Of a stretch of DNA of 64,000 nucleotides, positions 935 to 19,747 are shown one piece after another. The notes beneath the pieces are model-generated. The model had not been told where the DNA came from, ran no database searches, and saw nothing but the letters and a program-made list of their open reading frames with translations. Source of the DNA: Candidatus Nomurabacteria bacterium (GTDB lineage Bacteria > Patescibacteriota > Minisyncoccia > Phycocordibacterales > UBA9973); assembly GCA_029288725.1 (NCBI GenBank), contig JARIGS010000010.1:23947-87946 (forward strand), written 5' to 3'. Position 1 is the stretch's first letter. Each line of letters starts with the position of its first letter. The position numbers were made by a program, and so were the translations under genes.

Positions 935-937
935 ATT

Positions 938-2554: not shown

Positions 2555-2658
2555 GGCTGATTTGGGAATATTTAGCTGAAATCGTATACCTTATGGTATC
2601 ACAAGATCTTATGAATTGACGCTTTTGATTATTACAGGAAAATGGCTATATTAAGATA

Positions 2659-3360
2659 ATGATGATTGAGATAAGCAACAGGGTTTTTAAGACCAAAAAG
2701 AGTGCTGAGGAGTTTATTCAAGACATACTCTATAAATATCCCTTAAATCAAAGTTTGACCGGAGAGGATCTAGTTTTTGTATGTGGTATGCTTGAGCTTC
2801 ATCCTGATAAGGACGTGAAAATAGGGGTCGGGGTCAGCTCAATTATTATTGAGTCTGATACTGAATTCAATAAGACAAGACACTTTTCTGTAGTCAGAAC
2901 CGACGGTTCAATCGTCGATTTTAGTTTTAAGAAATGCTTGTCGCCAAACTTGAATGAGCCGATAAAATTGTTTCGCTCATGTGCTAGACGTGCCATTGCA
3001 AACCAGTGCTTGTCTTTCAGAGATGAATTCTTTCATAAAGAGCAGAACCTAGATACAAAAGTTCCATGTGCGATCACAGGGGTTTTGATTGATAAAAATA
3101 ATTGTCATGTTGATCACATCCACCCCGAAACATTCGATAAGATCATATTAGATTTTATTGCTGCAAATAATATTAATGTTTCCGAGATTAAATTCATCGA
3201 AGCTCAAAATGGCATAGGTAGAGTATTTGCAGATGATACTTTAAAGGATAGTTTTTCTAAATATCACAAAAGTGTTGCTAAACTACAGGTCGTATCGCCT
3301 GTGGCTAATTTAAAGCAGAAAAAAAGTAAAAACGTAGCATACAAAAACAGCTCAAAATGA
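2659..3360 (+). CDS. HNH-like nuclease-motif protein (paralog 1), unknown N-terminal domain; stand-alone copy of the RT-coupled protein at 14900..15568
   Basis: 233 aa; CAITGVLIDKNNCHVDHIHPETFDKI matches HNH core HxDHIxP. ~70% identical to 14900..15568. Own promoter TTGATT-16-TATATT (~2624-2651); terminator hairpin at the 3' end. Confidence 0.6.
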   Translation: MMIEISNRVFKTKKSAEEFIQDILYKYPLNQSLTGEDLVFVCGMLELHPDKDVKIGVGVSSIIIESDTEFNKTRHFSVVRTDGSIVDFSFKKCLSPNLNEPIKLFRSCARRAIANQCLSFRDEFFHKEQNLDTKVPCAITGVLIDKNNCHVDHIHPETFDKIILDFIAANNINVSEIKFIEAQNGIGRVFADDTLKDSFSKYHKSVAKLQVVSPVANLKQKKSKNVAYKNSSK

Positions 3361-3369
3361 GCTGTTTTT
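3342..3369 (+). terminator. Rho-independent terminator (ACAGCTC-AAAAT-GAGCTGT + T5) overlapping the stop of 2659..3360
   Basis: Perfect 7-bp stem, 5-nt loop, T-run 3365-3369. Confidence 0.7.
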
Positions 3370-3400
3370 GTATGCTACTCGTGCTAGCACGAGACGGTGA
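3369..3400. repeat. 32-nt direct repeat copy A (TGTATGCTACTCGTGCTAGCACGAGACGGTGA). Candidate att/boundary repeat containing the 16-nt perfect palindrome CTCGTGCTAGCACGAG.
   Basis: 30/32 identical to 16515..16546. It is followed by a decayed copy of the tRNA-Glu 3' half (GAGATAGAACC vs GGGAATCGAACC). Confidence 0.6.
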
Positions 3401-3496
3401 GCCTTCTCGAGATAGAACCTTTCGGTTCATTGCCCCATAAGCTCCGTTTTTAATACTTTGATAAAAAATACCGACCCTTCTCGTGCGTAGCAAAAT

Positions 3497-3534
3497 AGTG
3501 ACAAAAGTGACACAGGGTCGAGTATAAAGTGACA
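3497..3534. promoter_or_regulatory. Three direct repeats of (A)AAGTGACA at 3497, 3506 and 3528; possible arm-type or regulator binding sites near the island end
   Basis: atAGTGACAaaAGTGACAca...aaAGTGACAgt read directly. Confidence 0.25.
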
Positions 3535-3724
3535 GTCGTGTGTCCTTATTTCATAAGAGAGTGAGACATCCTGAGACAGGGAAAAACATTTTTCAATTCA
3601 TGAAGAACTTGATCCTATTCTTGAACTTATAGCTAATGAGCAGCGAAAAATTGAAGGGATGCGGGAGTAAACTTGAAAAAATTTCACACAAACCGACCTA
3701 TACGATAGGCGGTTTTTTTGATAT

Positions 3725-3758
3725 AAAAAAGCCTAAACAGTTTTACTGTTTAGGCCTT
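3725..3758 (-). terminator. Terminator for the minus operon 4035..5657 / 3777..4019 (AGCCTAAACAGT/ACTGTTTAGGC stem flanked by A/T runs)
   Basis: 11-bp perfect stem, T-run on minus strand. Confidence 0.65.
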
Positions 3759-3776
3759 GGATATTAGTTTAATGGC

Positions 3777-4019
3777 TCACCCGATCTTTTTCTTCATCGA
3801 ATGGCCGGTGTTTGTTGTAGCATTGTTTCCCGAAATTTGAGCGATTGTTATAGCGCTCCATTTATAAAACTCATCGAGCGAGCCGATAAGTTCAGGGTTT
3901 TGTTGCAACAATGCTGCAATGTTGTCTTCATGCTGGTCAGCATAGACTGCGATTTTTTGAGCTCCTTCAGAAAGTTTTTTGAATCCTTCCTCGTCAGCCC
4001 AGTTTCTGTCCTTTTTCAT
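3777..4019 (-). CDS. hypothetical 80-aa protein, co-oriented 15 nt downstream of the transglutaminase-like gene
   Basis: ORF with terminator just downstream; no recognisable motif. Confidence 0.4.
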   Translation of the reverse strand: MKKDRNWADEEGFKKLSEGAQKIAVYADQHEDNIAALLQQNPELIGSLDEFYKWSAITIAQISGNNATTNTGHSMKKKIG

Positions 4020-4034
4020 AACGTTTGAATTTGT

Positions 4035-5657
4035 TTAAAGAAATCTTTTGGAAAGCCTGTGTTTGGATGGGAGCTTGCGGATTGCTTCCGCAGCCGCCTG
4101 TGCAAGCTCTGGATCATCTTTTTCTGGAACCATAGCGTTGTGAAGCGTGGTTTGACAGAAACAATAATCCAAAATGAAAGAGCTGCTACCTGCAACACGG
4201 TGATCTATTGCTAAAGAATTTAAAGCAGCTATTGCGACATGGTGATAGTTATCCGCTCCAAAGTGAGCCTCTGAGTGAGTGATGATGCCGGTATCGTTCC
4301 AGTGGTCATTGATAGTATCTAACGCTAGACAATGATAGTACGTGTACAGGCAGTCTTTCTTCTTTTGCAGAAAATGCTCAGGGTCATTCAAAACATCATT
4401 CAGCAAGCTATTGCTCGGCCCAAGTAACATGTCGGATGCGGTGTTGATCTTAAAAATTTTATCAATACCTGAAGGAAACTTCTCGCCTGATCCTTCTTCA
4501 AAAAGAAGATCAAACTCACCGCTATCTACAAAGGCTTCAACGATCTTTACCAGGTCTGTAATTGGCTGTAAAAGAACTTCCATCTTTTTAGAGCGAACCA
4601 TATAACCATTAAATATATCAGTAATATGCTGAACGCCCTGCTCAAGCTGCAATGGGGCACTCCCTATCACGCTCAACCCTGGCAACACATCTCTGTATTT
4701 GGAAATTTTTCGAACAATTTCCTCCATATCCCATTCTTGCGAAAGGATACCCCAGTTGAGTGAATTGGAATCAATAATTACCCATCTTCCGTCCCTCACC
4801 TGTATGACAGGGCAAACGTGAAATGAGTGCATCATATCATCCAGATCTCCAATCCTTATTCCTGCTTCAAGGCTATCCATAAACTCTGGATCAGGAAATG
4901 TGATGGAGCGTGCTTCAATGTCTTTTTTAATTTCAGAAGCTTTCTTTTGCCTGAGATCATCCAAAACATCCCGAGCAGTTTTGTTAGGAAGCATGACTAC
5001 CGTTTTAGCTCCTACCATCTCTGCAAATGCCAGTATCATTTGTGTTTTGCCCTGACAGTTTGCACGGTTGTCACTTTTGTTCCATTTCCCATACCCTAGG
5101 GGAAAAACGCTATCGAAGCCGTATCGGCTATTTCTTATTTCGATCTTACGTCTAAATTCAGCAAAAAGCTCTTTAGACGATATGGTCGTTTTTTCGCGTT
5201 GATCCTCGGTATGGAACAGATAGTACAGTTTTTTCGTAAGCTCAACCTGTTCGTCGGCGGTTGCAGATTTCCATTCTTTGGCAATCTGTTTTGCCTCGTC
5301 TGGCAAATTTTTCTTTGCAGCAGTAACGAGAGCCTTTCCTAACCCTCCGATCATTGCCCTCATCTCAATCCCATGACCATATTTAGAATGGGTATTAGAA
5401 GATTCAATAAGTGCCTGTTTTTCAGGATAAGAGTTTAGCAGCACACCAGATACTAAGTGCCCGGCTCGCAGCATTTTACCTTCATCGGTATGCTCAGGGT
5501 ATTTCTCAAAAAGCAGTTTCTGGTTTTTGAGCAAAGAAGTGTAGATTTTTGACCTCTTGAATGAGGTAAGATTTACTCCACACCCTTGTGTGAGCGCAAA
5601 ATCAAATAGTTCTTTAATATTCATGTTAATGTGCTTTTGGTTAAAATTTTTACTCAT
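4035..5657 (-). CDS. 540-aa protein with transglutaminase-like (papain-fold) Cys-His-Asp core
   Basis: NCQGKTQMILAFAEM (Cys) ... MMHSFHVCPVIQVRDGRWVIIDSNS (H..W..D pattern), with C-H-D spacing typical of transglutaminase-like cysteine peptidases. Confidence 0.45.
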   Translation of the reverse strand: MSKNFNQKHINMNIKELFDFALTQGCGVNLTSFKRSKIYTSLLKNQKLLFEKYPEHTDEGKMLRAGHLVSGVLLNSYPEKQALIESSNTHSKYGHGIEMRAMIGGLGKALVTAAKKNLPDEAKQIAKEWKSATADEQVELTKKLYYLFHTEDQREKTTISSKELFAEFRRKIEIRNSRYGFDSVFPLGYGKWNKSDNRANCQGKTQMILAFAEMVGAKTVVMLPNKTARDVLDDLRQKKASEIKKDIEARSITFPDPEFMDSLEAGIRIGDLDDMMHSFHVCPVIQVRDGRWVIIDSNSLNWGILSQEWDMEEIVRKISKYRDVLPGLSVIGSAPLQLEQGVQHITDIFNGYMVRSKKMEVLLQPITDLVKIVEAFVDSGEFDLLFEEGSGEKFPSGIDKIFKINTASDMLLGPSNSLLNDVLNDPEHFLQKKKDCLYTYYHCLALDTINDHWNDTGIITHSEAHFGADNYHHVAIAALNSLAIDHRVAGSSSFILDYCFCQTTLHNAMVPEKDDPELAQAAAEAIRKLPSKHRLSKRFL

Positions 5658-5873
5658 ATTACAATTAATATTTGACTATGTCAATATCATTATACAAAGC
5701 AACCAAAGGGTATTTACATTAACGCGGCTACAAAAAAAATGGCACCGCTCGGGATGAGGGTGCCATTTTACTTTTAGTTAATTTCGCCAGTTCACGACTA
5801 GCCTGGAACTTTTTTATTGACACATTGCTTATTAATGATATGGTATTTACATCGTTCATTTAAACAACCCAAT

Positions 5874-6326
5874 ATGAAAAAGCACTTACTGTTCGCCCTT
5901 ATTACCGCTTTCGTTATCACTGCCGTATACAGCATTGTTACCCATGGCTTCATGGTCAGTCACCACATGCTGGTACGACCCACTGATCCCGATTACAAGA
6001 AAGCGGAATGGTCCATGCTGATCCTCGTATTCGCATCGGCACCATTCGTCATGGTCATGGACTTCCTGACCTTGGTAGAAGTTACCAGAGGAAGTACGGA
6101 AAAATGGATATTGAATAAATACCATTATGATGTTACCAACCCGCTCAAGATGAGATTCATGCTTTTCTTGGCACGGTATCAATTTTTCCTGTACCTGATC
6201 ATGATCATACCACTACTGTACACGCTGATCAGCGGCTTCTGCAGCTTCCTAAGCTTTCTGGCATTCATCTTTGAACGGCCGATCGACTGGATTCGCTGGC
6301 AATGTTTCTGCATTAGCCTCTGGTAA
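5874..6326 (+). CDS. hypothetical multi-pass membrane protein
   Basis: MKKHLLFALITAFVITAV...; hydrophobic segments; terminator at 6349-6372. Confidence 0.45.
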   Translation: MKKHLLFALITAFVITAVYSIVTHGFMVSHHMLVRPTDPDYKKAEWSMLILVFASAPFVMVMDFLTLVEVTRGSTEKWILNKYHYDVTNPLKMRFMLFLARYQFFLYLIMIIPLLYTLISGFCSFLSFLAFIFERPIDWIRWQCFCISLW

Positions 6327-6404
6327 ATTGGCCACACACATTTTTACAAATCGCTCCTCGGAGCGGTTTTTTCATTTTACCATTGATCTTGCTATGATTA
6401 TGGA

Positions 6405-6764
6405 ATGGAAAAACTCTACATCACTCGAATCACTCTGCACGTAAAGGGCTTTCGACCTACGACGACGTTTTCAAAGGTCAAAGAAAAGGGCATTTTATAC
6501 AGCGCGCTTTCTTCAGATTCGTTCAATAAGCCGATCACTGGCAATGACAATATCAGAAACTTGCGCATCGACTTGCCGGAAGATCTCATGGAGAAGGTGC
6601 GAGCAGGGACACTCGAAATAATGATCCCGAAGGAAGGCCTTCAGATCTATGCAGGCAGAGACACGATTGAAAAGGCTCAGCATGAAATGGACAAGGAGCG
6701 CAATATGTTGATTCACAAGAGCCGCGGCAAAACTTGGCGCGCCGATGATAAAGGTGTAAAATAG
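6405..6764 (+). CDS. hypothetical protein
   Basis: ORF only; no motif. Confidence 0.3.
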   Translation: MEKLYITRITLHVKGFRPTTTFSKVKEKGILYSALSSDSFNKPITGNDNIRNLRIDLPEDLMEKVRAGTLEIMIPKEGLQIYAGRDTIEKAQHEMDKERNMLIHKSRGKTWRADDKGVK

Positions 6765-6915
6765 AACCACAACCGAATATTACAGGTGTTGCCCCGCACG
6801 ATAGTGCCATGCTCGCTTCGTAGAGAAAGCCCAGAAAATTAGGAATAGTTTTTTGAGTCTTCATCGCGAAGCGAGCTTTCTTGTTCTAATTACAAAAATT
6901 AAACAAGCAACTATC

Positions 6916-8193
6916 ATGAACAACATCATATGGCATACGGAAGTACGCCAAGTATCTAGTCTCCACTCATGGAGTGAAAACCCCCGCAAGCTCTCAAAAA
7001 GTGCGTTTGCAAAGTTAGTCGGGCGCATTCAGGAGCGCGGATTTCATTCAGTACTAGTGATTGATACCGATGACACCATCCTCTCTGGCAATCAGCGAAA
7101 GACCGCATTGGAGCATCTTAAGATTGAAGAAGTCACTGTATTGATACCAAACCGAAAGCTCTCAGAGGAAGAGCGGAAGAAGATCGCCCTTGAAAGCAAT
7201 CTTAACGATGGGGAATGGAATTACGAGATGCTCAAGTCCTTCGATATCGATCTTGTTACCGACATCGGCTTCGACATGTCCGAGCTTTCAAAGTTTTGGG
7301 ACAAGGATCTAGAAGTAACAGAAGAAGAATTCGACGAGGAAAAGGAAATTAAGAAGATAAAAGTTCCCGTAACTGAGTTCGGAGATCTCATTATCATGGG
7401 CGGTCATAAGCTGCTCTGCGGAGACTCGACTGATCCAGAAGCGGTAAAGAAACTGTTCGGAAACGACAAGGCGGCGGTCATCTACAGTGATGCAATTTTT
7501 AACATTGGCTTGAGCTATGACGGCGGCGTGGGCAACAAATCTAGTTACGGCGGTACGGTTGACGACAACAAGTCAGCTGAGGAATATAAAGAATTTATCA
7601 AGAAAACGATTGTGAATGCACTGTCTGTCTCAAAGGATGATGTTCACTGCTTCCAATGGTGCGATGAGGCCTGGATCTGGGTTTTTCAAACCATATACAA
7701 CGAGCTCGGTATCAAGAACCGACGAGTGAATGTATGGTTGAAGAACAACGCATCGCCCGTGGCCCAAGTGGCATTTAACAAGGCACTTGAATTCTGCGTC
7801 TATGGCACGAAGGGATCTCCATTTCTGTCTCCATTATACACCAATCTTAACGAGATCATGAATCCAGAACTCGGAACAGGAAACGATCTCTATGAGCAAG
7901 TGACAAATGTCTGGGCGCACAAGCGTCTGCCAAGCAATCAGCTCGAACATCCAACGAGCAAGCCGCCAGAACTTCACAAGAAGGCACTGCTCCGCTGTTC
8001 AAAGCCAGGAGACATCATCTTCGACTCCTTCTCGGGATCGGCGAGTACAATGATCTGCGCAGAACAGTTGAAACGAAAAGTATATTCCTTGGATATAGAA
8101 GGCGTCTTCTGTGACTTGGCCATTCGCCGTTACGAAAAGTTCACAGGAAAGAAAGCAGAAATAATCAAACACTTCTATGAAAAAGAATACTAA
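6916..8193 (+). CDS. ParB-like N-terminal nuclease domain fused to a beta-class DNA (N6-adenine/N4-cytosine) methyltransferase
   Basis: VLVIDTDDTILSGNQRKTALEHL (ParB box). HPTSKPPELHKKAL (motif IV) then IIFDSFSGSASTMI (motif I FxGxG). ATG at 6916; the ORF track starts earlier at a TTG. Confidence 0.75.
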   Translation: MNNIIWHTEVRQVSSLHSWSENPRKLSKSAFAKLVGRIQERGFHSVLVIDTDDTILSGNQRKTALEHLKIEEVTVLIPNRKLSEEERKKIALESNLNDGEWNYEMLKSFDIDLVTDIGFDMSELSKFWDKDLEVTEEEFDEEKEIKKIKVPVTEFGDLIIMGGHKLLCGDSTDPEAVKKLFGNDKAAVIYSDAIFNIGLSYDGGVGNKSSYGGTVDDNKSAEEYKEFIKKTIVNALSVSKDDVHCFQWCDEAWIWVFQTIYNELGIKNRRVNVWLKNNASPVAQVAFNKALEFCVYGTKGSPFLSPLYTNLNEIMNPELGTGNDLYEQVTNVWAHKRLPSNQLEHPTSKPPELHKKALLRCSKPGDIIFDSFSGSASTMICAEQLKRKVYSLDIEGVFCDLAIRRYEKFTGKKAEIIKHFYEKEY

Positions 8194-8593
8194 GAAGAAC
8201 GAGTTCATTGATCAGCTCCGCAAGATTCCCATTGTCTTGGTCGCCTGCGAAAAGACATCGATTGCTCGCAACACGGTATACCGTTGGCGCAAGGAGGATG
8301 AATCGTTCGCAACGGCTATGGATGACGCGTTGCTCGAAGGCGAAGCACTGATCAATGACATGAGCGAGAGTCAACTGCTTACCATGATCAAGGAAAAAAA
8401 CTGGTCGGCGATCAGCTTCTGGCTTCGTCATCGCAATCCGAAGTTCAGAGACAAGGTTGAGATAACTCATTCCACGAAGGATAAGGAGCTTACCAACGAA
8501 CAAAAGGCATTGATTGAAAAAGCGCTACAACTCACTACCTTCTCGCAAGACAAGGCACTTGAAATATTATCAGGCACTACAAATGAAAAATAA
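8177..8593 (+). CDS. putative phage terminase small subunit (HTH)
   Basis: SIARNTVYRWRKEDESFATAMDDAL HTH typical of TerS N-termini; overlaps the MTase gene end and the TerL gene start. Confidence 0.5.
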   Translation: MKKNTKKNEFIDQLRKIPIVLVACEKTSIARNTVYRWRKEDESFATAMDDALLEGEALINDMSESQLLTMIKEKNWSAISFWLRHRNPKFRDKVEITHSTKDKELTNEQKALIEKALQLTTFSQDKALEILSGTTNEK

Positions 8594-10109
8594 ATATATG
8601 AATATATTAAATAACAAGGAGCTGATCGAAACTATTATCAAGGATCGTGAGGTGCGCCGCGCACTGACCAAGGAGAGCCATGAGTATTTCTTCCCCGTAT
8701 ATTTTGGGGAGTATATAAAATATCCCAGTGCGCCCCTTCATACGGAAATGATCAAGATCACGGAAAACACTGACGAGCAGTTGTCGGTGGTGGTGGCATT
8801 TCGTGGTTCTGCAAAATCCACAATCTTCTCTTTGTCATATCCCATCTGGGCGATATTGGGAAAGCAACAAAAGAAGTTCGTGCTCATAGTGTCCCAGACA
8901 CAGGTGCAGGCTCGGCAACTCCTCACCAACATCAAAGAAGAGTTGACGAACAATCACCTGCTGAAGAGCGACCTCGGACCATTTGAAGAGCCAGACGACG
9001 AATGGCGTGCGGCTTCCATTGTGCTTCCGCAGTACGGTGCCCGTATCATGGTCGCATCAAGCGAGCAAAGCATTCGTGGCATACGCCATAAAAGCTATCG
9101 TCCAGATCTCATCATTCTCGACGACATCGAGGACATTGCCTCCTCCAAGACAAAAGAGGGTCGCGACAAGACGTTTCGATGGCTTGCAAGCGAGGTGCTT
9201 CCTGCGGGAGATGTCACAACGAAAGTCATTCTTATTGGAAACCTTGTTCATGAGGATTCAGTCATCATGCGTCTTCGGCAAAAGATTAAGCTTAAGGAAA
9301 TCAAAGGAAGCTTCTCTATGTATCCGATCATGGATGAGCAGGGAGTGAGCTTGTGGCCCGGGAAATTCCCGACACCAGAATCGTTGAAAAACGAGGAGAC
9401 GAAAGTGCTCAATCCGCAGGCATGGTTTCGCGAGTATCTGCTTAAAATCATTCCCGAGGAAGGACAGGTAGTCTTTCCAGAATGGTTTCAATATTACGAC
9501 ACCTTGCCAACCAAACATCAGCGCGCCTACCGTTGCACGTATTCGGCGGTTGACTTGGCAATATCTCAGAAAGACAGTGCTGACTATACGACTGTTGTCA
9601 CGGCATATGTCTATGGGCGTGCGGACAAGATTCGCATATACATTCTGCCAAACCCAATCAACAAAAAGCTGTCATTTCCTGCACAAGTGGAAATGCTGAA
9701 AGGTCATGCAGCGATTGCTTTGCCGAATTCTTCCGACAAGCTTTTTGTTGAAAGCGTCGCATACCAAGACGCACTGCCGCAAATGCTCAAAACCCAAGGG
9801 GTGCATGCGATTGGCGTAAAGCCGCAAAATGACAAGCGCACACGCCTTGCACTGACGACTTCCTATATTCAATCGGGACGAGTGAAATTCCCCCAGAAAG
9901 GGTGCGAAGATCTCATTCAGCAACTGGTCGGTTTCGGTATTGAAAACCACGATGACCTTGCTGATGCATTTTCGTTGCTCATTCTGCAGATTGCGGAGCG
10001 ACATCTTAATGAGTCGACATGGATGATATGCTTCCTTGGTGGGTCAAGCTACGATAAGAACGGGACTATTTATTATGATGACTATATTGACGTGGAAACA
10101 GGAAAATAA
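8583..10109 (+). CDS. phage terminase large subunit (ATPase + RNaseH-like nuclease)
   Basis: Walker A AFRGSAKST, Walker B LIILDDIEDI, nuclease region SAVDLAISQKDSADYTTVV. ATG 8583 chosen (overlaps the TerS stop by 11 nt); alternative upstream start 8514. Confidence 0.8.
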   Translation: MKNKYMNILNNKELIETIIKDREVRRALTKESHEYFFPVYFGEYIKYPSAPLHTEMIKITENTDEQLSVVVAFRGSAKSTIFSLSYPIWAILGKQQKKFVLIVSQTQVQARQLLTNIKEELTNNHLLKSDLGPFEEPDDEWRAASIVLPQYGARIMVASSEQSIRGIRHKSYRPDLIILDDIEDIASSKTKEGRDKTFRWLASEVLPAGDVTTKVILIGNLVHEDSVIMRLRQKIKLKEIKGSFSMYPIMDEQGVSLWPGKFPTPESLKNEETKVLNPQAWFREYLLKIIPEEGQVVFPEWFQYYDTLPTKHQRAYRCTYSAVDLAISQKDSADYTTVVTAYVYGRADKIRIYILPNPINKKLSFPAQVEMLKGHAAIALPNSSDKLFVESVAYQDALPQMLKTQGVHAIGVKPQNDKRTRLALTTSYIQSGRVKFPQKGCEDLIQQLVGFGIENHDDLADAFSLLILQIAERHLNESTWMICFLGGSSYDKNGTIYYDDYIDVETGK

Positions 10110-10129
10110 TTCCGTTAATAATTGGCAAA

Positions 10130-10966
10130 TTAGTTATAGCTCGTAATGATTCCGCTACTGTCATAATAAACACAGCTTTCACTATAGTCAGACCCTGTCC
10201 AACAGGCCTGATACTGATTGCCAGTTCCATAGTTTGAGGTATGTACTGAGCTTGGGCTGCCCCATGCGGCGCGAACCATGTCTATGTCCATGCCGACTGT
10301 AATTTTATGGCTTGCAATGGTTGCACAGACATCCTTGCTCCAGTCAGGGTGCTTTTTGCACACCTTTCCCGCAGGACTGTTATCGTAGGCTGCTTGTACG
10401 GCCTTGTCTTCGGCTGTTTTGATAGCTTCTGCCTGGGCTTGCTGCAGGTCTTCGGTTGCCATTTGAGCTTTCTCCTGATCGGTATAGAGGCGAGTGATCG
10501 TAATAGTCTTCGTGTCAGTTTTGTCATTGTTCGTTGCGGCCACCATCACGGTATTCGTTTCCTTTGTCAGGCCAACTGATGAAGAAAACTTTCCATGCGA
10601 GACAACGGTGACATTTCCGTTGACGGTCACTGTTGCGGTGTACGGCTCGACCGATCCTTCAATGGTGGCGGAAGCCGACTGTATTGAGGCGTTGTCTGCG
10701 GGGCTGGTTATGACAATCGTTGGCGCTCGTTTGGCATACAAGTTAAGACCGGTGAGCATGATGCAAAGTGCCACGAGAGCCGCAGTCCATTGGACTTTTC
10801 CTTTTTGATGCATCGTGACGCTCTTCCAAACATATATTATCGCTATGAGTGGAAATGAGACGTACCAGTATATGAATGCGATCGGTACTACGACCACAAG
10901 TATGAGCAGGATGCTTATTATCTTGTGCTTGTGATAAAAGTCTTTCAGTTCTTCGTTAATGGTCAT
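10130..10966 (-). CDS. hypothetical membrane-anchored/exported protein (N-terminal TM, Cys-rich C-terminus)
   Basis: ILLILVVVVPIAFIYWYVSFPLIAIIYVW TM segments; long structured leader upstream. Confidence 0.5.
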   Translation of the reverse strand: MTINEELKDFYHKHKIISILLILVVVVPIAFIYWYVSFPLIAIIYVWKSVTMHQKGKVQWTAALVALCIMLTGLNLYAKRAPTIVITSPADNASIQSASATIEGSVEPYTATVTVNGNVTVVSHGKFSSSVGLTKETNTVMVAATNNDKTDTKTITITRLYTDQEKAQMATEDLQQAQAEAIKTAEDKAVQAAYDNSPAGKVCKKHPDWSKDVCATIASHKITVGMDIDMVRAAWGSPSSVHTSNYGTGNQYQACWTGSDYSESCVYYDSSGIITSYN

Positions 10967-10968
10967 AT

Positions 10969-11115
10969 TTTCTCTAGCGGGATTTAAATATGAGAGAAGC
11001 CCAGATATAACAAAAGGCTCCTCGCCATTGCGATGACCTTTCGGCCACCCATACCCGTTTCCAGATACGACCCGCTAGAGTGACTCTGACGAGGAGTCCT
11101 TTGTTCTCTAGCGGG
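10969..11115 (-). promoter_or_regulatory. Structured 5' leader of 10130..10966 with three copies of a 10-mer (CTCTAGCGGG 10972-10981, its reverse complement 11071-11080, CTCTAGCGGG 11106-11115)
   Basis: Read directly. The proximal copy sits 5 nt from the start codon, and the middle copy can pair with either outer copy. Confidence 0.35.
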
Positions 11116-11231
11116 AGTTTCGACCATATCCTTTGTTTCCAAGGGGGTTAGGCCTCTATTAAATTGTTACCTGACTATAATACAGTAAATACTGCATTAC
11201 TTCCACACCTTATCGCAGTTCAGTTGATTTG

Positions 11232-12254
11232 TTAAGGCTGGTTACCAACAGTCATCTGATTGAGGTATTTCCTCAAATCTTCTATCGTCTCAATCTGTTT
11301 TGTCTTATGCATGTAAGGCAGCTTTACCCATATGTTGATCGTGATGAATGCTCTCAGGAGAACTTGGTCATATTCTTCACCATCAAAGTATCCCTCGACA
11401 AGTTGCTTGGTTACTTCGTCCAATCCAACCTTTGAAGCAAGGATAATGCTTCTGGCTATGTCCATATATGGATGATGGAAACAAGCCCATGGGTCAAAGA
11501 CCGTAAGAGGCTCCGTAGCGAACACGTTACCAGTATGAAAGTCGTTGTGACAATACACTGTTTCTTTATTATTACCAATACGAGAAATGATCAATCTGCA
11601 TACTTCCTCTATTGATCCATGATCTCTATCATTTAAGAGCTGGTTCTCCTTCACATATGCAAACTGCTCCTTTGTGCGAGTGTCGCTCTCAAGCCACTCC
11701 GCAACCGTCTGGTACCCTGGCCCCTTCTTGTCATTCACTATATTGCTGCAGCCCTCCGTCTTGGTGGCGTGCATTTTTCTTAGCATCTTGCCCAAATCGT
11801 AATAGGCTCTCTTTTCCAAGAGTTCCTCGTTGCTGTATTTCTGAATCAAGGTCTGCGCTTCGATATATTCCATGAGTACATAGAAGTGGTCTCCTAACGT
11901 GCCCTCTTCAAAGACATGAGGTACTCTTACTCCACTGTCTTCCCATACCTTAAGGAACGACCCTTCTAGTCCCGAAGTGAGCAAGCTCAATGGCACCTTA
12001 AGAATATATTTTTGCTCCATTGTATCGAGAATGCAGACCAGTGATGAAACCCCTGCATGGAGAAAGGTAATGTCAACTTTCTTACTCAAAAACAAGAAAT
12101 GGTTACTTATAAAATCCTTAAGCACTGGAAGGAGTGCTGTTCGGCGTTCGTTGAAATTGGTGTCCGCTTCGTGCTCGGACAGCTTTGGCTCATTGAGGAA
12201 AGTGATCCTATTGGGATCTTGAAGATTGTCGTTCATCCACCAATTATACTCCAA
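11232..12254 (-). CDS. phosphotransferase enzyme family protein (APH/choline-kinase-like fold)
   Basis: CHNDFHTGNVF (catalytic HxDxxxxN) and FDPWAC (metal-binding D). Confidence 0.65.
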   Translation of the reverse strand: MEYNWWMNDNLQDPNRITFLNEPKLSEHEADTNFNERRTALLPVLKDFISNHFLFLSKKVDITFLHAGVSSLVCILDTMEQKYILKVPLSLLTSGLEGSFLKVWEDSGVRVPHVFEEGTLGDHFYVLMEYIEAQTLIQKYSNEELLEKRAYYDLGKMLRKMHATKTEGCSNIVNDKKGPGYQTVAEWLESDTRTKEQFAYVKENQLLNDRDHGSIEEVCRLIISRIGNNKETVYCHNDFHTGNVFATEPLTVFDPWACFHHPYMDIARSIILASKVGLDEVTKQLVEGYFDGEEYDQVLLRAFITINIWVKLPYMHKTKQIETIEDLRKYLNQMTVGNQP

Positions 12255-12351
12255 GTTCTATTTTGAGAGTATTGATACGATTGCGAGTATGCTATGAAAT
12301 ACTTATCCTGCATAGCTATGCATCACCAACCAGTCTGTCATTAATATAGGT

Positions 12352-13671
12352 ATGGAAACGACAGCTATCGGCAAGATTCCGAGCAACATATCCATTTCGG
12401 AGACGAGGGTCAGATACTGCCTGTATGCCCGAAAATCGACCGAGTCGGACGAGCAGCAGGCACTGTCCATAGACTCGCAGATCAAGGAGATGACGGATAT
12501 TGCGGAGCGACTAAAACTCAACGTGGTCATGGTGAAGCGAGAGTCACATTCCGCAAAGGAGTCTGGACAGCGACCAGTGTTCAAGGAATTGCTGGAAGAA
12601 ATCAGAGACGGAAAATGCGACGGTATTCTCACATGGGCACCAGACCGACTGAGCAGAAATGCTGGCGATCTTGGAACCGTTGTCGATCTCATGGATCAAA
12701 AGAGGCTGATTCACATTCAGACGTACGGACAGACATTTTCCAATTCACCAAATGAGAAATTTCTGCTGATGATATTATGTTCACAAGCGAAGCTTGAGAA
12801 TGACAATAAAAGCATCAACGTGAAGCGTGGGCTTCGGGCAAGAGTCGAGATGGGACTCTGGCCGTGCAGACCGCCGACTGGATATACAAAATACAAGCGT
12901 ATTGATCAGAAGTGCGAGTCAGTGATTGATCCAGTGCGAGCGCCAGTTATCAAGCAGATGTTTGAGAAAATTGCATATGACGGCTGGAGCGGAAGAAAGC
13001 TGTACCATTGGCTGAAGGACGACATCAAGTTCAGGACGGAAAACAACATGCCATTGAGTCTCGGCAATCTCTACAAGATTCTGGAGAACCATTTCTATTA
13101 CGGACGATTCGAGTTCCCGAAGCAGTCTGGCAACTGGTACAACGGCGCGCATGAGCCGATCATTACGAAAGACCTGTTTGACCTTGTTCAGGAAAGGATA
13201 AAGAGTCAGATACTTCAGCCACGGTCAGAGCAAAAGGAGTTTGCCTTCACCAAGATCATGACCTGCGGACTGTGCGGCTCTGGCATCACTGCAGACGAGA
13301 AGTTCAAGAAGCAGAAGAACGGCAACGTCCACCGCTATGTCTATTACAAGTGCACCCGTGTCAAGGATTCGCAGTGTCCCAGCGGATACATCAACGAAGA
13401 AGAACTCGTTACCCAGTTGCAGGATCTGATGGACGACGTTGAGATACAGACGGTGCCAATGCGGGAGAAGATAACGGCGGAGGTACACCGCTTCAAGAAG
13501 TTTGAGCAAATGCTACTGGGAACAAAGACGACAGTGTCGGTGAAGGATATCGATATCCGCAACTATGCCAAGTTCATTCTGCTTGAGGGAACAATGGACG
13601 AGAAGCGAGAGTTTCTAAGGTGTTTGAAGAGCGAGATCGTGTTGAATAACAAAAGGGTTTCATTAAAATAA
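12352..13671 (+). CDS. large serine recombinase (resolvase/invertase catalytic domain + recombinase domain + zinc ribbon)
   Basis: YARKSTESDEQQALSIDSQ (catalytic Ser), DRLSRN, GLWPCRPPTGYT, CGLCG...YYKC. Confidence 0.85.
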   Translation: METTAIGKIPSNISISETRVRYCLYARKSTESDEQQALSIDSQIKEMTDIAERLKLNVVMVKRESHSAKESGQRPVFKELLEEIRDGKCDGILTWAPDRLSRNAGDLGTVVDLMDQKRLIHIQTYGQTFSNSPNEKFLLMILCSQAKLENDNKSINVKRGLRARVEMGLWPCRPPTGYTKYKRIDQKCESVIDPVRAPVIKQMFEKIAYDGWSGRKLYHWLKDDIKFRTENNMPLSLGNLYKILENHFYYGRFEFPKQSGNWYNGAHEPIITKDLFDLVQERIKSQILQPRSEQKEFAFTKIMTCGLCGSGITADEKFKKQKNGNVHRYVYYKCTRVKDSQCPSGYINEEELVTQLQDLMDDVEIQTVPMREKITAEVHRFKKFEQMLLGTKTTVSVKDIDIRNYAKFILLEGTMDEKREFLRCLKSEIVLNNKRVSLK

Positions 13672-13688
13672 TGTGGTATAATAGAAGC

Positions 13689-13895
13689 CACTTGTAAATT
13701 GAAAAGCCACCCATTTTTTTATCTTTTTATAAAAAAGATTTCAAAGATAAAATGTCCCGATCATGACGGCACTGAGCTGGCTACCGCCTTAACAGTACAG
13801 TCGGAATCGTATCATTGATTTCTTTGTCCTTTGAGAGATTAGTCCTTAGAGAGGTAGGTAGTCCGCTATCAACAATGACAGTTTTACAAGTAGTT
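13689..13895 (+). ncRNA. candidate retron non-coding RNA (msr-msd) upstream of the RT
   Basis: Extended -10 TGgTATAAT at 13674-13682 predicts a TSS near 13689. Inverted repeat ACTTGTAAA (13690-13698) / TTTACAAGT (13883-13891) resembles a1/a2. Internal hairpins ATCTTTTT-ATA-AAAAAGAT (13721-13739) and GGGGTGG-N12-CCACCCC (13897-13922). Boundaries are approximate. Confidence 0.35.
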
Positions 13896-14010
13896 CGGGG
13901 TGGTTTTGTTATTGTCCACCCCACAGTTAGTGTATGGAATTATTCGTAATTGCATTACTGCTTATTTTCCTCACAATTCGTGAGTCGAATAAGTAAGGGC
14001 TAAGACCTCA

Positions 14011-14907
14011 GTGGATAATGAAAAATTATATTCCTCAAAGAAATACCTCCTAACGCTCCTTGGAATAAAGGAAAACTTTCTGTACCCCAATTTCTCACAA
14101 AAATACAAAGAAAAGAATATCCCCAAAAAGAATGGCGGCATTCGAAAAATTAAACCACCGCAATTTAACCTCAAGAAACTCCAAAAGGTTGTCCTTGAAA
14201 AAATACTCCGTATACATCCTCAGTTGCCATGCGTGTACGGTTTATCAAAGGATAGGAACATCACCAGTAATGCAAAACTTCACCGGAAAAATTTTGATAA
14301 CCAGTTAGTCGTTTTGGACATTGAAAACTTTTTTCCAAGCATAACAAAAAAGCAAATAGTTCAAGTATTTAAGAAAATCGGTTTCAATAAAGAAAATTCT
14401 TTGATACTTGCGAAAATTTGCACCGTTGATGATTGCTTACCCCAAGGCGCACCAACCAGTCCGTACCTCGCTTCTCTCGTTTGCATTAAACTGGATAAAG
14501 AAATATACCAATACTGTAAAAAACATAATTTTGAATACACAAGATATTTTGATGACATTAGTGTCTCAGGGAAAAACATACTGCCCAAACATATTAAAGA
14601 TATAGAAAACGCTATCCGTAAACACGGTTTTACCTGTAACGCAGAGAAGAAGAATTTTTATGACACAGGTAAGGATAAGATTATAAATGGTGTACTAATT
14701 ACTGAAAATGGGCTATCAGTAACAAGTTCTTACAAAAAGGAAATTGAAGATATTTATAATGCATTAATCAATAGTCGGACTATTGAAAACAAAAGGTCAT
14801 TTTCGGGCAAGTTTGGATTTTATTTACACATAAACAGGAAAGAAGCCGTTGCTTTTTTAGAAGGAATGAAAAAAGGAATAACCTCGCTAGCGTATAACCA
14901 TGATTGA
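14011..14907 (+). CDS. retron-type reverse transcriptase
   Basis: VLDIENFFPSITKKQIVQVF, LPQGAPTSPYLASLVCIKLD and YTRYFDDISVS align closely with Ec86 RT blocks NIDLEDFFPSL / LPQGAPSSPKLANLIC / YTRYADDLTLS. ~298 aa; no maturase or X domain. Confidence 0.85.
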   Translation: MDNEKLYSSKKYLLTLLGIKENFLYPNFSQKYKEKNIPKKNGGIRKIKPPQFNLKKLQKVVLEKILRIHPQLPCVYGLSKDRNITSNAKLHRKNFDNQLVVLDIENFFPSITKKQIVQVFKKIGFNKENSLILAKICTVDDCLPQGAPTSPYLASLVCIKLDKEIYQYCKKHNFEYTRYFDDISVSGKNILPKHIKDIENAIRKHGFTCNAEKKNFYDTGKDKIINGVLITENGLSVTSSYKKEIEDIYNALINSRTIENKRSFSGKFGFYLHINRKEAVAFLEGMKKGITSLAYNHD

Positions 14908-15568
14908 AATAGATAGCAAGATTTTCAAAACCAAAAAGGATACCGAGGATTTTATTCGTACGATACTTTACAAGTACCCCCTAAATGAGCCACTGATCGG
15001 AGAAGACTTGGCTTTTGTCTCTAGCCTGCTTGAACTTCACCCCGACAAGGACACGAAAATAGGAGCTGGAGTCAGCTCAATCATCACTGAAGCCGACAGC
15101 GAGTTCAATAAAACCAGACATTTTTCTATTGTTAGAGTGGACGGTACGATCGTCGATTTTAGTTTTAAAAAATGTTTGTCACCAGTACCGAATGAACCTA
15201 TCAAATTGTTCCGATCTTGTGCAAGGCGTGCAGTTGCAGATCAAGCTCTGTCTTTCAGGGACAAGTTTTTTCTTGAGAATCAGAATTCCGATGGAAATGT
15301 CGCATGTGCGCTTACTGGTGTTTTGATTAATAAAAATAATTCACACATTGATCATATCGCCCCAGCTACGTTCGACAAGATTGTTTTGGATTTTATTGCT
15401 ATAAACAACATTGATGTAAGTAAGGTCAAATTTATTGAATCGCTAAACGGGATAGGTAGAGTATTTGCTGATAACAATTTAAAAGATACCTTTTCTACAT
15501 ATCACAAAAATGTTGCCATGCTACAGGTCGTATCGCCTGTGGCCAATTTAAAGCAGAAAAAGAAGTAA
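14900..15568 (+). CDS. HNH-like nuclease-motif protein (paralog 2), translationally coupled to the RT (ATGATTGA overlap)
   Basis: CALTGVLINKNNSHIDHIAPATFDKIV (HxDHIxP). 8-nt overlap with the RT stop. ~70% identical to 2659..3360. Confidence 0.6.
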   Translation: MIEIDSKIFKTKKDTEDFIRTILYKYPLNEPLIGEDLAFVSSLLELHPDKDTKIGAGVSSIITEADSEFNKTRHFSIVRVDGTIVDFSFKKCLSPVPNEPIKLFRSCARRAVADQALSFRDKFFLENQNSDGNVACALTGVLINKNNSHIDHIAPATFDKIVLDFIAINNIDVSKVKFIESLNGIGRVFADNNLKDTFSTYHKNVAMLQVVSPVANLKQKKK

Positions 15569-15589
15569 AAAAATCTTCTCTTTTGCAAT

Positions 15590-16105
15590 TTATAATTTTC
15601 CCATTCTCTTCAAAACTTTTTCTGTAAGATCGTCTATATTTTCCTGATTACTAATATCAGGAGATAGTTTTTTTAAAATCACATCTAATTCCATGTATGA
15701 TTTTTGGTCACCAATTTTTGCATAAAAGTGCTTTAGTCCAATAATGATTGATTCTGTCAACATTTTGACATAAGGTAAGGAGCTAACTGCGGTATAGTGA
15801 TAACCTGCAATTCGTTCAAAATCAAAATCGTCATTAAAAACATCAAATGAATCAAGAAGGGCTCCATAAGAAACATGGGTATAGCTAGAGAGCATTCCGT
15901 AAATACCCGCCTTCACCTCATCAAACGGTATTTTTTCATTAGGCTTTTCTTGATTATCAGAATACTTTTGATATTGTTTTCTTGCTACTTCATTCCCAAC
16001 AATTTTACCCTCGAACCATTTGATTAAATCAGGATTTGTATCGTCACTGTCTAGGAAGTAAAATGCCAAGTCTAAAGCTTCTTGTGACGATCGAACAATT
16101 TCCAT
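15590..16105 (-). CDS. hypothetical protein
   Basis: 171-aa ORF; may be the distal part of a gene disrupted together with 16260..16487. Confidence 0.4.
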   Translation of the reverse strand: MEIVRSSQEALDLAFYFLDSDDTNPDLIKWFEGKIVGNEVARKQYQKYSDNQEKPNEKIPFDEVKAGIYGMLSSYTHVSYGALLDSFDVFNDDFDFERIAGYHYTAVSSLPYVKMLTESIIIGLKHFYAKIGDQKSYMELDVILKKLSPDISNQENIDDLTEKVLKRMGKL

Positions 16106-16259
16106 TACCTCATAATGAAATCCATCGGCTGCTAAATGGAAAATTGCCGATAGTCCTTGAGAAGCTTTGCCAAATAATATATAGGCGGCAGTAATTTTAT
16201 TTTGATCAATGGCATCCTTAATGTGAAGTCGGACCTGTCGAATGTATGGAAAAAACTCA

Positions 16260-16487
16260 TTAAAACATTTTTTTTAAAACTTCCACCTTTTTAAGAATAA
16301 AAACCTTGTCTGCCTCCATCTGCTCATATGGAAAATTAGGATTTTGATTCAAAAAATCCTTAACTTTCTCTTGCTGATCCTTGTACTTCTTGATACGTTC
16401 TGCTATTGAAAGTTGCGCTTCTTTTTTAAGGGGGTTAATGTTATCCATTGTTTTTAAACCACGAGTTCGATTCTCAAAAGGGTGCAA
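16260..16487 (-). CDS. hypothetical small protein (possible fragment)
   Basis: 75-aa ORF ending at a T8 homopolymer; a 150-nt gap before the next same-strand ORF. Confidence 0.3.
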   Translation of the reverse strand: MHPFENRTRGLKTMDNINPLKKEAQLSIAERIKKYKDQQEKVKDFLNQNPNFPYEQMEADKVFILKKVEVLKKMF

Positions 16488-16514
16488 AATCCTGATTTTG
16501 AAAATACCCTTAAA

Positions 16515-16546
16515 ATGTATGCTTCTCGTGCTAGCACGAGATGGTG
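16515..16546. repeat. 32-nt direct repeat copy B (TGTATGCTTCTCGTGCTAGCACGAGATGGTGA), overlapping the last 6 nt of tRNA-Glu
   Basis: 30/32 identity to 3369..3400. Confidence 0.6.
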
Positions 16547-16615
16547 ACCCTACGGGGAATCGAACCCCGATTTAAGCCTTGAGAAGGCTCCGTCCTAACC
16601 GTTAGACGATAGGGC
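16541..16615 (-). tRNA. tRNA-Glu (anticodon CUC), CCA encoded
   Basis: Reverse complement GGCCCTATCGTCTAACGGTTAGGACGGAGCCTTCTCAAGGCTTAAATCGGGGTTCGATTCCCCGTAGGGTCACCA. 7-bp acceptor stem with one G-U, T-loop GGTTCGATTCC, anticodon loop TTCTCAA. Confidence 0.85.
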
Positions 16616-16659
16616 CAAGTGCTGCATAACTATAATGAACGATGGTGTATAATGCAAGC

Positions 16660-17157
16660 ATGAAAAAAAGATATTTTTTGCTTATCTTTGTGGTGCTGTT
16701 TGCGGCATCGATGTATGGATTGGTGGCGACGGTGGAGAATAGTACACCGACGGTTAATACTCCTGCTGCAGGATTGTCGTCTGAGCAAGTGCCGCCAGTG
16801 CAGAAGGATGATCTGATCATGGTGACTGCGCCGCTGACCGGGCAGACCGTGACCTCGCCGTTGATGATCAGTGGCAAGGCAAGAGGGAATTGGTATTCCG
16901 AAGGCGTCTTTCCGGTCGAGCTGACGACTGATGACGGTTCGATCATTGCATCGGGTGAAGCTCATGCCGAAGGCGAATGGACGACGACCGACTACGTGCC
17001 ATTTACTGCTACGCTGACATTTCCGACCAGCAATCCTTCGCTTCGCTCAGGAGCTACGGCAGAAACATCCACTATGGGATACGTCGTATTGAAAAAGGAC
17101 AACCCTTCCGGTGATCCGCAGTTTGACAACTCCGTATCAATCCAAGTACAGTGGTAG
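16660..17157 (+). CDS. secreted Gmad2-like immunoglobulin-fold protein
   Basis: Signal/TM MKKRYFLLIFVVLFAASMYG; -10 TATAAT at 16648 with a short leader. Confidence 0.45.
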   Translation: MKKRYFLLIFVVLFAASMYGLVATVENSTPTVNTPAAGLSSEQVPPVQKDDLIMVTAPLTGQTVTSPLMISGKARGNWYSEGVFPVELTTDDGSIIASGEAHAEGEWTTTDYVPFTATLTFPTSNPSLRSGATAETSTMGYVVLKKDNPSGDPQFDNSVSIQVQW

Positions 17158-17158
17158 T

Positions 17159-17938
17159 ATGCAAGGTACACCAGTTTCCAAAAAAATATTGCTCGGGCTA
17201 TTGCTTGTCGTACTGGCAATCATCGGCGCATTGTTCTATGCACATCGCGCTTCCAATGTTGTCGTGGCACCGGTCAATGAAAACACTCCCATGCCTGCGG
17301 CCGGCGACTGGCCTTCTACGAAAGTCAGTGAGGCAAACATTACTGACAACAAAAGTTACTACACTATTTCTGCCGTCTATCCTGTAACCAGGGATGCCGT
17401 CATTACCGGCTACTTCAAGACCTTTGTCGAGCAGGCCATTGCACAGTTTAAGGATGACACCTCATGGGCGGCAACTGATGCAAGTACTGCACCAGCAGAA
17501 GCGGCCGCACTAACGCTCAACATTACTTATACCGAACAGAAGGGTACCTATGCCGACAACTATATCTTTTCAACTACAACCTATACTGGCGGTGCTCACG
17601 GCCTTGCATCAACCAAGACCTTTTCATTCTCCTCAACTGGTCAGCTGGTCTCGCTTAGCTCACTGTTTACCAATGGCTTGAACGGCCTCAAGACTGTTGC
17701 ACCATATGTGAAGTCACAATTGGCAAGCACGCTGCCCGCCGGTGATCAGTCATTTATCGATAGTGGCACCGAGGCAACACAGGACAACTATCAAAGCTTC
17801 GTCGTGTCAGACGATGGCGTACTCTTTATGTTTGACCCATATCAGGTCGCACCGTACTCAGACGGTCAGCAAAGCGTCAAAGTACCACTAACAGTATTCC
17901 GCAGCATCGCCAGCCCCGATATCTTTCCTACTCGGTAG
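17159..17938 (+). CDS. membrane-anchored DUF4163/DUF3298-like protein
   Basis: N-terminal TM, YPVT...ITGYF...F pattern. Confidence 0.5.
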   Translation: MQGTPVSKKILLGLLLVVLAIIGALFYAHRASNVVVAPVNENTPMPAAGDWPSTKVSEANITDNKSYYTISAVYPVTRDAVITGYFKTFVEQAIAQFKDDTSWAATDASTAPAEAAALTLNITYTEQKGTYADNYIFSTTTYTGGAHGLASTKTFSFSSTGQLVSLSSLFTNGLNGLKTVAPYVKSQLASTLPAGDQSFIDSGTEATQDNYQSFVVSDDGVLFMFDPYQVAPYSDGQQSVKVPLTVFRSIASPDIFPTR

Positions 17939-18995: not shown

Positions 18996-18996
18996 G

Positions 18997-19716: not shown

Positions 19717-19747
19717 GCACCTATTGTACCATGCTATAATTCGGCAT

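Follow-up and report, generated by a model that had tools for sequence, protein, structure and literature searches.

Composite islands of the staphylococcal cassette chromosome (SCC) consist of several cassettes in tandem with a repeated site at each junction (PMC7029739, PMC6243372), and serial occupancy of one tRNA gene is known for Islander-type islands (PMC4383910). The present analysis concerns a 64-kb stretch of DNA (the window) from a Candidatus Nomurabacteria bacterium, a member of the Candidate Phyla Radiation (CPR). Beside its tRNA-Glu(CUC) gene, located at 16542-16616 on the minus strand by ARAGORN and Rfam, positions 3400-16546 very likely form a 13.1-kb integrative element, here called E2, inserted at the tRNA 3' end. 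According to this reading, to which good confidence is attached as a whole, E2 belongs to a CPR family that owes its mobility to a large serine recombinase (LSR), occupies tRNA-Glu genes (CUC or UUC) and is stacked here behind a second, upstream element, E1. The right end of such an element, next to the tRNA, is termed the P arm and its left end the P' arm; loci of other genomes that were used for comparison carry L-numbers.

The SCC elements with their Ccr recombinases may be regarded as the nearest analogue in behaviour, and the serine-integrase prophages as the nearest in enzyme and site architecture. As in SCC, insertion is LSR-driven and takes place where a conserved housekeeping gene ends (3'), conservation of the target is confined to the half contributed by the gene, and the cargo varies. 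The differences are a tRNA gene as target in place of rlmH, a single LSR of 439 amino acids in place of the CcrA/CcrB pair and a CPR host. Moreover, the repeat at the junction is a 27-nucleotide arm brought by the element, whereas in SCC it is a short target-derived sequence, and the cargo is mostly anti-phage, accompanied by a terminase module and an attached LOOT RNA. The integrases of SPbeta (SprA), A118, TP901-1, phiC31 and Bxb1 have the same domain architecture as the enzyme of E2, with detectable homology to SprA, TP901-1 and A118. Common to these systems and to the inferred phage-type attachment site (attP) of the family are a pair of inverted, imperfectly matching half-sites (about 25 bp each), a central non-palindromic dinucleotide and the lack of a long target duplication. 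Serine integrases of phages usually target protein-coding genes, in contrast to the tRNA acceptor end used here, which the P' arm mimics. A recombination directionality factor was not identified in the family.

Other relationships are looser. Tyrosine-integrase islands of the Islander type likewise insert at a tRNA 3' end and restore it, although here the restored part is limited to C72-A73-CCA; in addition, the recombinase is of another family, there is no long identity between attP and the chromosomal site (attB), and no displaced tRNA fragment lies at the far end. Filamentous phages of the phiRSM type reportedly integrate at a tRNA-Ser gene by means of a small resolvase-like serine recombinase. 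They share with E2 the action of a serine recombinase at a tRNA gene 3' end, but the small enzyme belongs to another subfamily and the element is a filamentous phage. P4-like elements and phage-inducible chromosomal islands (PICIs) are small and integrated, and combine a tyrosine integrase with packaging genes and a variable anti-phage slot. The cargo of the present family (retron, Gabija, Hachiman, MmeI-type restriction-modification (R-M) and KAP NTPase) is reminiscent of these phage satellites, but neither a helper phage nor a replication module nor capsid-redirecting genes were recognised.

The original prediction was built on two 32-nucleotide direct repeats, taken as the two ends of one island inserted at the tRNA 3' end. 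The pattern TGTATGCTWCTCGTGCTAGCACGAGAYGGTGA, or written out TGTATGCT[A/T]CTCGTGCTAGCACGAGA[C/T]GGTGA, has exactly two matches in the 64 kb, at 3369-3400 (copy A) and 16516-16547 (copy B), and none in 100 shuffles. Both repeats are therefore real; the position of copy A was correct and that of copy B (16515-16546) one base too low. The agreement at 30 of 32 positions was reproduced, as was the 16-nucleotide palindrome CTCGTGCTAGCACGAG in both copies, which occurs nowhere else in the window, and the similarity extends to 51 nucleotides at 82% identity (3369-3419 versus 16516-16566). Copy B overlaps the last six nucleotides of tRNA-Glu, as proposed (TGGTGA, which corresponds to TCACCA with the encoded CCA). 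The genes announced between the copies were also found with Pfam, PHROGs and PADLOC, namely a ParB-N6 methyltransferase, the terminase subunits TerS and TerL, a serine recombinase and a retron-type reverse transcriptase (RT).

A mobile island at the tRNA-Glu 3' end can thus be upheld, and the interpretation of its ends has to be changed. The 32-mer is not a duplicated target, being absent 3' of unoccupied tRNA-Glu genes and accompanying the LSR family. Copy A is not the far end of the insertion that ends in copy B, but the right end of the different element upstream. Directly after copy A, the stretch GGTGAGCCTTCTCGAGATAGAACC shares 17 of 24 positions with the acceptor/T-arm of the tRNA, by direct reading. 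This resemblance had been noticed correctly, but the stretch is a conserved element left end and not a decayed tRNA half. It had also seemed odd that the non-tRNA part of the repeat is better conserved than the tRNA-like part, which is explained by the tRNA-like stretch being a conserved recombination arm.

Comparison with related genomes demonstrates the insertion. The flanking RmuC has relatives exclusively in CPR/Patescibacteria (Paceibacterota-like) genomes, several of which preserve the order RmuC, DUF3298, Gmad2, tRNA-Glu(CUC). The nearest relative found, L104 (RmuC 92% identical at the amino acid level), is collinear over ~9 kb to the right of the tRNA. It has the same tRNA-Glu with nothing inserted: the gene is followed by unrelated sequence (...ATATGACGCG-GTGA-CCCC), the dcw cluster of division and cell wall genes begins 4 kb further on, and neither an LSR nor either of the two end motifs is present. 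L104 therefore provides the empty site for which the original prediction had suggested a search. In the more distant syntenic loci L006 and L013, 1-3 kb separate the tRNA from the dcw cluster. At the same place, the window contains more than 16.5 kb of accessory DNA of low or mixed GC content, and no homologue of the genes in the dcw block of L006 (including FtsI/PBP, MraW and MraZ) occurs in the 64 kb. With the dcw genes gone, accessory DNA in their place and L104 empty, the DNA beside the tRNA has to be considered an insertion. The tRNA-Glu trailers at unoccupied sites differ from locus to locus, and the palindrome was found in none of 80 RmuC-linked loci of other species.

The enzyme in question is encoded at 12352-13671 on the plus strand. 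This LSR is composed of the Pfam domains PF00239 (Resolvase), PF07508 (Recombinase) and PF13408 (Zn_ribbon_recom), and has the catalytic YxRxST motif in the form YARKST at residues 25-30. It aligns to SPbeta SprA over residues 25-366 and also to the TP901-1 and A118 integrases, and among the NCBIfam models CcrB matches it best (E=9e-35), although far short of the family cut-off. Judged from these features, it would act as integrase and excisionase of E2 and is presumably still active. The reported lack of a tyrosine integrase holds true, since no tyrosine recombinase (Phage_integrase-type) domain was detected in the open reading frames (ORFs) of at least 60 amino acids tested within 1-20000, and the gene tables for the related loci contain none either. 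It is no anomaly, however, because the LSR is the integrase.

Relatives of the LSR fill at least 120 database clusters (90%-identity clusters) that are 77-100% identical and stem essentially all from CPR metagenomes. An IMG/VR protein search returned only three distant relatives (57-61%). The best non-self match of the LSR reaches 92-95%, compared with 69% for the flanking host DUF3298 protein, and the LSRs of the window and L084 are 86% identical, as against 50% for RmuC. This far better conservation of the LSR than of host genes speaks for horizontal spread. The LSR is the only gene found in all family members, and the only one that L082 and the window have in common. The kind of element, an LSR integrative island, is familiar; literature searches on this LSR family in CPR bacteria found no description of it, widespread as it is. 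More remote enzymes have also been observed next to tRNA genes: a 57% identical LSR in L087 (6040-7513) ends 117 nucleotides before tRNA-Gln(CUG), and a 31% identical one in L009 (3063-4708) adjoins tRNA-Glu(CUC). Targeting of tRNA ends may thus be a wider habit of CPR serine integrases.

The element ends were defined by comparing eight independent loci (the window, L082, L084, L088, L092, L094, L098 and L103). Each of them contains a left-end motif, an LSR (78-95% mutually identical), variable cargo and a right-end motif, the GTGA cores of one element being 5.6-15.1 kb apart, and the flanks outside the two motifs are unrelated between loci. A profile of window positions 3390-3530 matches to the left of the LSR in the seven other loci, and a profile of the 32-mer region finds its matches on the right-hand side of the LSR, in these seven loci and in L081. 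The left end has the form GTGA-GCCTTCTCGAGATAGAACC... (GTGA-GCCTTCTCGAG-type for the family), the right end the form TATGCTTCTCGTGCTAGCACGAGATG-GTGA, and P-GTGA-P' can be written as the 60-bp site AATGTATGCTTCTCGTGCTAGCACGAGATGGTGAGCCTTCTCGAGATAGAACCTTTCGG. GTGA marks in every locus the point where homology to other elements begins or breaks off. In seven of eight elements, the right end abuts tRNA-Glu (five CUC, two UUC). In the window, the left end of E2 is a conserved non-coding region on the plus strand (3401-3593) that is recognised by the left-end profile and is 80% identical at the nucleotide level to L082 7906-8103. The right end is copy B on the plus strand, identified by the right-end profile, with the P half-site of E2 and the core GTGA at 16544-16547; the tRNA contributes the B' half-site.

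Occurrence of the 32-mer at unrelated loci had been named as an argument against an island. The sequence was indeed found elsewhere, but at the right end of an LSR element beside tRNA-Glu, and all of its occurrences lie within 2-8 kb of this LSR family or a remnant of it. The only metagenome match to the 23-nucleotide core pattern is L081, which consists of tRNA-Glu, hairpin and P arm; the P arm is intact and a 5'-truncated LSR remnant (residues 254-439) lies 3.4 kb away. In IMG/VR, the palindrome and degenerate left-end and right-end patterns gave no match.

Read outward from the G/A centre of GTGA, the P arm (reverse-complemented) is CACCATCTCGTGCTAGCACGAGAAGC and the P' arm AGCCTTCTCGAGATAGAACC... 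In the window, the two agree at 14 of 26 positions, a value reached by 19 of 10000 shuffles, and across the eight loci the agreement is 12-16 of 26. P' and the tRNA half-site B', aligned in half-site register, match at 13 of 26 positions (56 of 10000 shuffles). At positions +6 to +12, the variant changes jointly in both arms of an element: TCTCG(T/A)G (variant 1) occurs in the window, L082 and L088, TCA(A/G)CAG (variant 2) in L084, L094 and L103, and A(A/T)TCGTG (variant 3) in L098. These three variants coincide with three LSR clades. Paired inverted half-sites that co-vary with the enzyme are, as far as sequence can tell, the expected signature of a serine-integrase attP. Variant 2 breaks the palindrome (CTCGTGCTAGCTGTTGA) and shows the matching change in the opposite arm, which fits a protein-binding site and not a hairpin. 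A long hairpin precedes the P arm in most loci and, by its score, would be a terminator directed away from the tRNA. In the window, inverted-repeat and terminator scans locate such a hairpin of the family right end at 3334-3378 (minus strand), with perfect 21-bp arms followed by GTTTTT. The same hairpin, with compensatory changes in the stem, is present in L081, L082, L092, L094, L098 and L103, and in other loci it follows tRNA-Glu immediately. The element would thus bring along a terminator for the tRNA.

Copy A is explained by a tandem arrangement. It is recognised by the right-end profile (E=5e-15; plus strand), and together with its hairpin it is 90-94% identical to the right ends of L081 and L082 over 65-69 nucleotides. 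A family right end, then GTGA, then a family left end amounts to P(E1)-GTGA-P'(E2), and two elements would therefore lie in tandem. The junction 3369-3422 accordingly has a P-core-P' structure, in which copy A supplies the P half-site of E1 and the core GTGA at 3397-3400, where homology breaks on both sides in the eight loci. What is visible of E1 fits the family layout, with cargo between LSR and P arm. This cargo comprises a GajB-like UvrD helicase (2-934, minus strand; PADLOC GajB, E=1e-83), which is cut by the left window edge, a GajA of the OLD-family ATPase-TOPRIM type (938-2554, minus strand; PADLOC GajA, E=2e-165; Pfam AAA_15 and OLD-like TOPRIM) and, as the last gene, a DUF3223/HamC-like protein (2659-3360, plus strand; Pfam DUF3223, PADLOC HamC). 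By these matches, GajA and GajB constitute a Gabija defence system carried by E1.

E1 would be a complete element whose own LSR lies shortly beyond the left window edge. Another LSR, P0002, has full length (440 amino acids), is 95% identical to that of E2 and is not encoded in the window. It is recorded on a contig of 169,748 bp, a length also recorded for the contig of the LSR of the window (P0001) and its DUF3298 protein (P0121); no third LSR from a contig of this size was among the 120 best matches. P0002 is probably the recombinase of E1. Alternatively, E2 may be the single live element, beside the decayed stump of an older member, with Gabija and DUF3223 as a fixed remnant and the array as a fossil. 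This possibility is to be taken seriously, though at well under even chance. The left part of E1 lies outside the window, stumps are proven to exist by L081, and P0002 may sit at the other tRNA-Glu gene of the genome, as is the case in L088, a locus from the same metagenome as L104. The full length of P0002, its high identity and the contig size that it shares with the proteins of the window argue for two complete elements, and so do the intact P arm, hairpin and cargo genes of E1.

A different view of E2 arises from its packaging genes. The ParB-N6/N4 DNA methyltransferase (6853-8193), TerS (8177-8593) and TerL (8514-10109), all on the plus strand and all matched in Pfam and PHROGs, are intact, and the module recurs according to tblastn and gene tables in L084, L092, L094, L103, L085 and L086. 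Capsid, portal and tail genes are missing from all loci. The element could therefore be a phage satellite or a degraded prophage that is packaged in helper capsids and uses the LSR for integration only. Its relatives are listed as viral in IMG/VR, and 5.6-15 kb is a satellite-like size. On the other hand, L082 and L088 lack the entire module and keep ends and LSR, genes for replication, helper-sensing or interference were not recognised, and no helper phage is known. Such a satellite nature is tentative at best, and it would be compatible with LSR-driven stacking at the tRNA.

Far less probable is a tyrosine-integrase tRNA island that has since lost its integrase, with the 32-mer as duplicated attachment core and a tRNA half in decay at the distal copy. 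Tyrosine integrases are used by most tRNA-gene islands (PMC4383910), and direct repeats that overlap a tRNA 3' end, a tRNA-like stretch at the distal copy and genuine tRNA 3' fragments of 19-23 nucleotides further left in L084 and L037 would suit this explanation, the last showing that other integrations have happened. The supposedly decayed stretch, however, recurs in conserved form as the left end of seven further elements whose left flanks are unrelated (65-96% identity over the first 23 nucleotides of the P' arm), and its variants change in step with the right end and the LSR clade. Of the repeat, only 4-6 nucleotides are tRNA; the 26 non-tRNA bases are absent from unoccupied tRNA-Glu sites and were hence not copied from the target, and no locus has a tyrosine recombinase domain in its gene table. 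That the 32-mer is a generic host sequence, either the native tRNA-Glu terminator or trailer or a REP-like palindrome, can practically be dismissed despite its perfect palindrome, the strong terminator hairpin adjoining it in most loci and its place downstream of tRNA-Glu in several genomes, given that the 64 kb contain it twice, the metagenome collection once and the 80 RmuC-linked loci and IMG/VR not at all, and given the constant proximity to the family LSR or its remnant and the compensated loss of the palindrome in variant 2.

Several observations weigh against E2 as an LSR-moved element stacked behind E1. The half-site variants of L092 are mixed, and L095 contains an LSR with neither end within 10 kb. 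In L082 (13498-13530), a full right end is followed by GTGA, CCC and then the non-tRNA sequence AAATCCGAACGGATTGG, so that either the tRNA has been lost or the insertion was off-target. The B half of the target, i.e. the tRNA trailer, varies from genome to genome, an unusual situation for the attB of an LSR, and both arms contain additional motifs resembling half-sites or the tRNA for which this reading does not account. The IMG/VR viral scans were empty, yielding no excised circle and no attP outside the tandem context. The left end and recombinase of E1 are outside the window, and with P0002 at the other tRNA-Glu gene of the genome, E1 may be a remnant. Finally, canonical serine integrases recombine attP with attB only, and not attP with attL or attR, the hybrid sites of the integrated state, which leaves the route to a tandem unclear.

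For the LSR-moved, stacked element favoured here, the following mechanism can be proposed. Crossover would take place within GTGA (T71-C72-A73 on the tRNA strand), most likely at the GA dinucleotide (3399-3400 at the E1/E2 junction). On the tRNA strand, T71 and C72 flank the centre, and the P arm therefore supplies C72, A73 and CCA; after integration, it would replace the tRNA trailer. P' would be an inverted imperfect copy of P that resembles the tRNA acceptor/T-arm because LSR subunits are predicted to have to bind P, P' and the tRNA half-site alike. In the circle, P-GTGA-P' would form a typical serine-integrase attP. As the tRNA half is conserved and the trailer half free to vary, the enzyme probably tolerates almost any sequence on the trailer side. 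A second element may consequently land on a resident junction, either P-GTGA-tRNA or, by virtue of the tRNA-like P', trailer-GTGA-P'. Arrays could form through such use of resident junctions, by analogy with SCC at rlmH, or else by homologous recombination of a circle with a copy already in place.

Behind the left end of E2 lie a 540-amino acid ORF (4035-5657, minus strand), for which no relative was detected in Pfam, PHROGs, PADLOC, NCBIfam or PDB sequences, and a 169-amino acid ORF (5817-6326, plus strand) common to the L088 element (83% at the amino acid level by tblastn). The terminase genes are followed by a variable gene 'X' (10130-10966, minus strand) for a 278-amino acid protein with a Glucodextran_B-like domain (Pfam), downstream of a LOOT RNA (RF03000; 11032-11154, minus strand; 82.5 bits versus a gathering score of 46.4). 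The LOOT RNA is found in the same position in L084 (9721-9835), L092 (9721-9850), L094 (9717-9839) and L095 (9736-9858), and also in L085 (5466-5580) and L086 (4850-4979). It is always on the strand opposite to the LSR, with its 5' end 140-165 nucleotides from the LSR start, and 54-75 nucleotides upstream of gene X. The window alone has an APH-family kinase-like gene (11232-12254, minus strand; Pfam APH, NCBIfam match weak) inserted between LOOT and LSR. This constant placement suggests that LOOT is a regulator belonging to the element; literature searches on the context of LOOT found nothing specific. Position X is filled by non-homologous genes in the different loci, so that a single gene family was ruled out.

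The slot between LSR and right end carries very different modules in L092, L084/L094, L098-L101, L095 and L103. Seen were MmeI-type R-M together with helicase and T5orf172, a DUF4011/MTES_1575 helicase of 1,650 amino acids accompanied by DUF2779, ZnuABC plus Fur (here Hachiman lies on the other side), redox genes of the Mer/copper type, and a Dcm methylase next to KAP NTPase. A cargo swap between L088 and L090 was considered and discarded, both being the same sequence. In the window, the slot begins with a conserved non-coding leader of about 340 nucleotides (13672-14010, plus strand), which like the RT (82% at the amino acid level) is common to L088. The retron-type RT (14011-14907, plus strand; PADLOC retron RT, E=9e-69) overlaps the start of a DUF3223/HamC-like gene (14900-15568, plus strand; PADLOC HamC) by 8 nucleotides, and a 171-amino acid ORF without family matches follows (15590-16105, minus strand). 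The retron region has no Rfam match, and in the literature searched, DUF3223 is not listed as a retron effector and the RT-DUF3223 pairing is not among the described retron types. The DUF3223 proteins of E1 and E2 are 75% identical (BLASTP), the E1 paralogue being next to Gabija and directly before hairpin and 32-mer. The Gabija genes (2-2554) sit in CPR genome DNA of 30-35% GC.

Additional motifs were noticed around the ends. About 80 nucleotides inside the left end, the E2 left-end region with its P' half-site, the tRNA look-alike, has a second motif, CCTTCTCGTGC (3478-3488), at the same position in L082, L084, L098 and L103, followed by three GTGACA repeats (3494-3545). This inner motif keeps the variant-1 form (TCTCGTG; TCTCGAG in L098) despite variant 2 or 3 at the crossover half-sites. 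Motif and repeats may be accessory or regulatory binding sites. Sequences like the T-loop/acceptor 3' half of a tRNA, opposite in orientation to the real one, lie 60-100 nucleotides from the crossover: inside the right arm in the window (GAGTTCGATTCTCAAAAGGGTGCA, 16459-16485, plus strand, by direct reading) and in L037 (2305-2335), at the same distance from the P arm, and in the left flank in L084, L088 and L094. True copies of the tRNA-Glu 3' end (GTGACCCTACGGGGAATCG...), located left of the elements and apart from P' in L084 (5673-5692) and L037 (186-208), testify to other events at this tRNA. L037 itself resembles a 2.2-kb remnant that has retained the P arm and has no LSR. A full pseudo-tRNA at copy A was rejected, as global alignment with the whole tRNA gave no convincing homology beyond the T-arm. 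In L103, a different serine recombinase gene (3929-5569, 546 amino acids) spans the left junction of the element, which suggests that one recombinase-bearing element was inserted into or against another.

For annotation, the locus teaches that repeats which overlap the end of a tRNA gene are not necessarily duplicated targets. The family is also a natural set of co-varying recombinase/site pairs at a conserved tRNA end, of practical interest to serine-integrase engineering, and provides the orphan LOOT RNA with a genomic context. CPR bacteria have tiny genomes, and little is known of their mobile elements. The LSR family is probably a main route for their exchange of anti-phage systems, since it extends over well more than 100 clusters at 77% identity or more and its elements carry Gabija, retron, Hachiman, R-M, KAP-NTPase and metal-handling genes. 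As a speculative extension, one may picture a CPR 'cassette chromosome', in which one LSR family stacks defence, metal-resistance and packaging cassettes at tRNA-Glu, each left arm leaving a landing site for the next insertion through its imitation of the tRNA end, and LOOT, always divergent from the recombinase gene, regulating integration or excision. If this were true and the terminase module functional, CPR bacteria would have in these cassettes their first known phage satellites.

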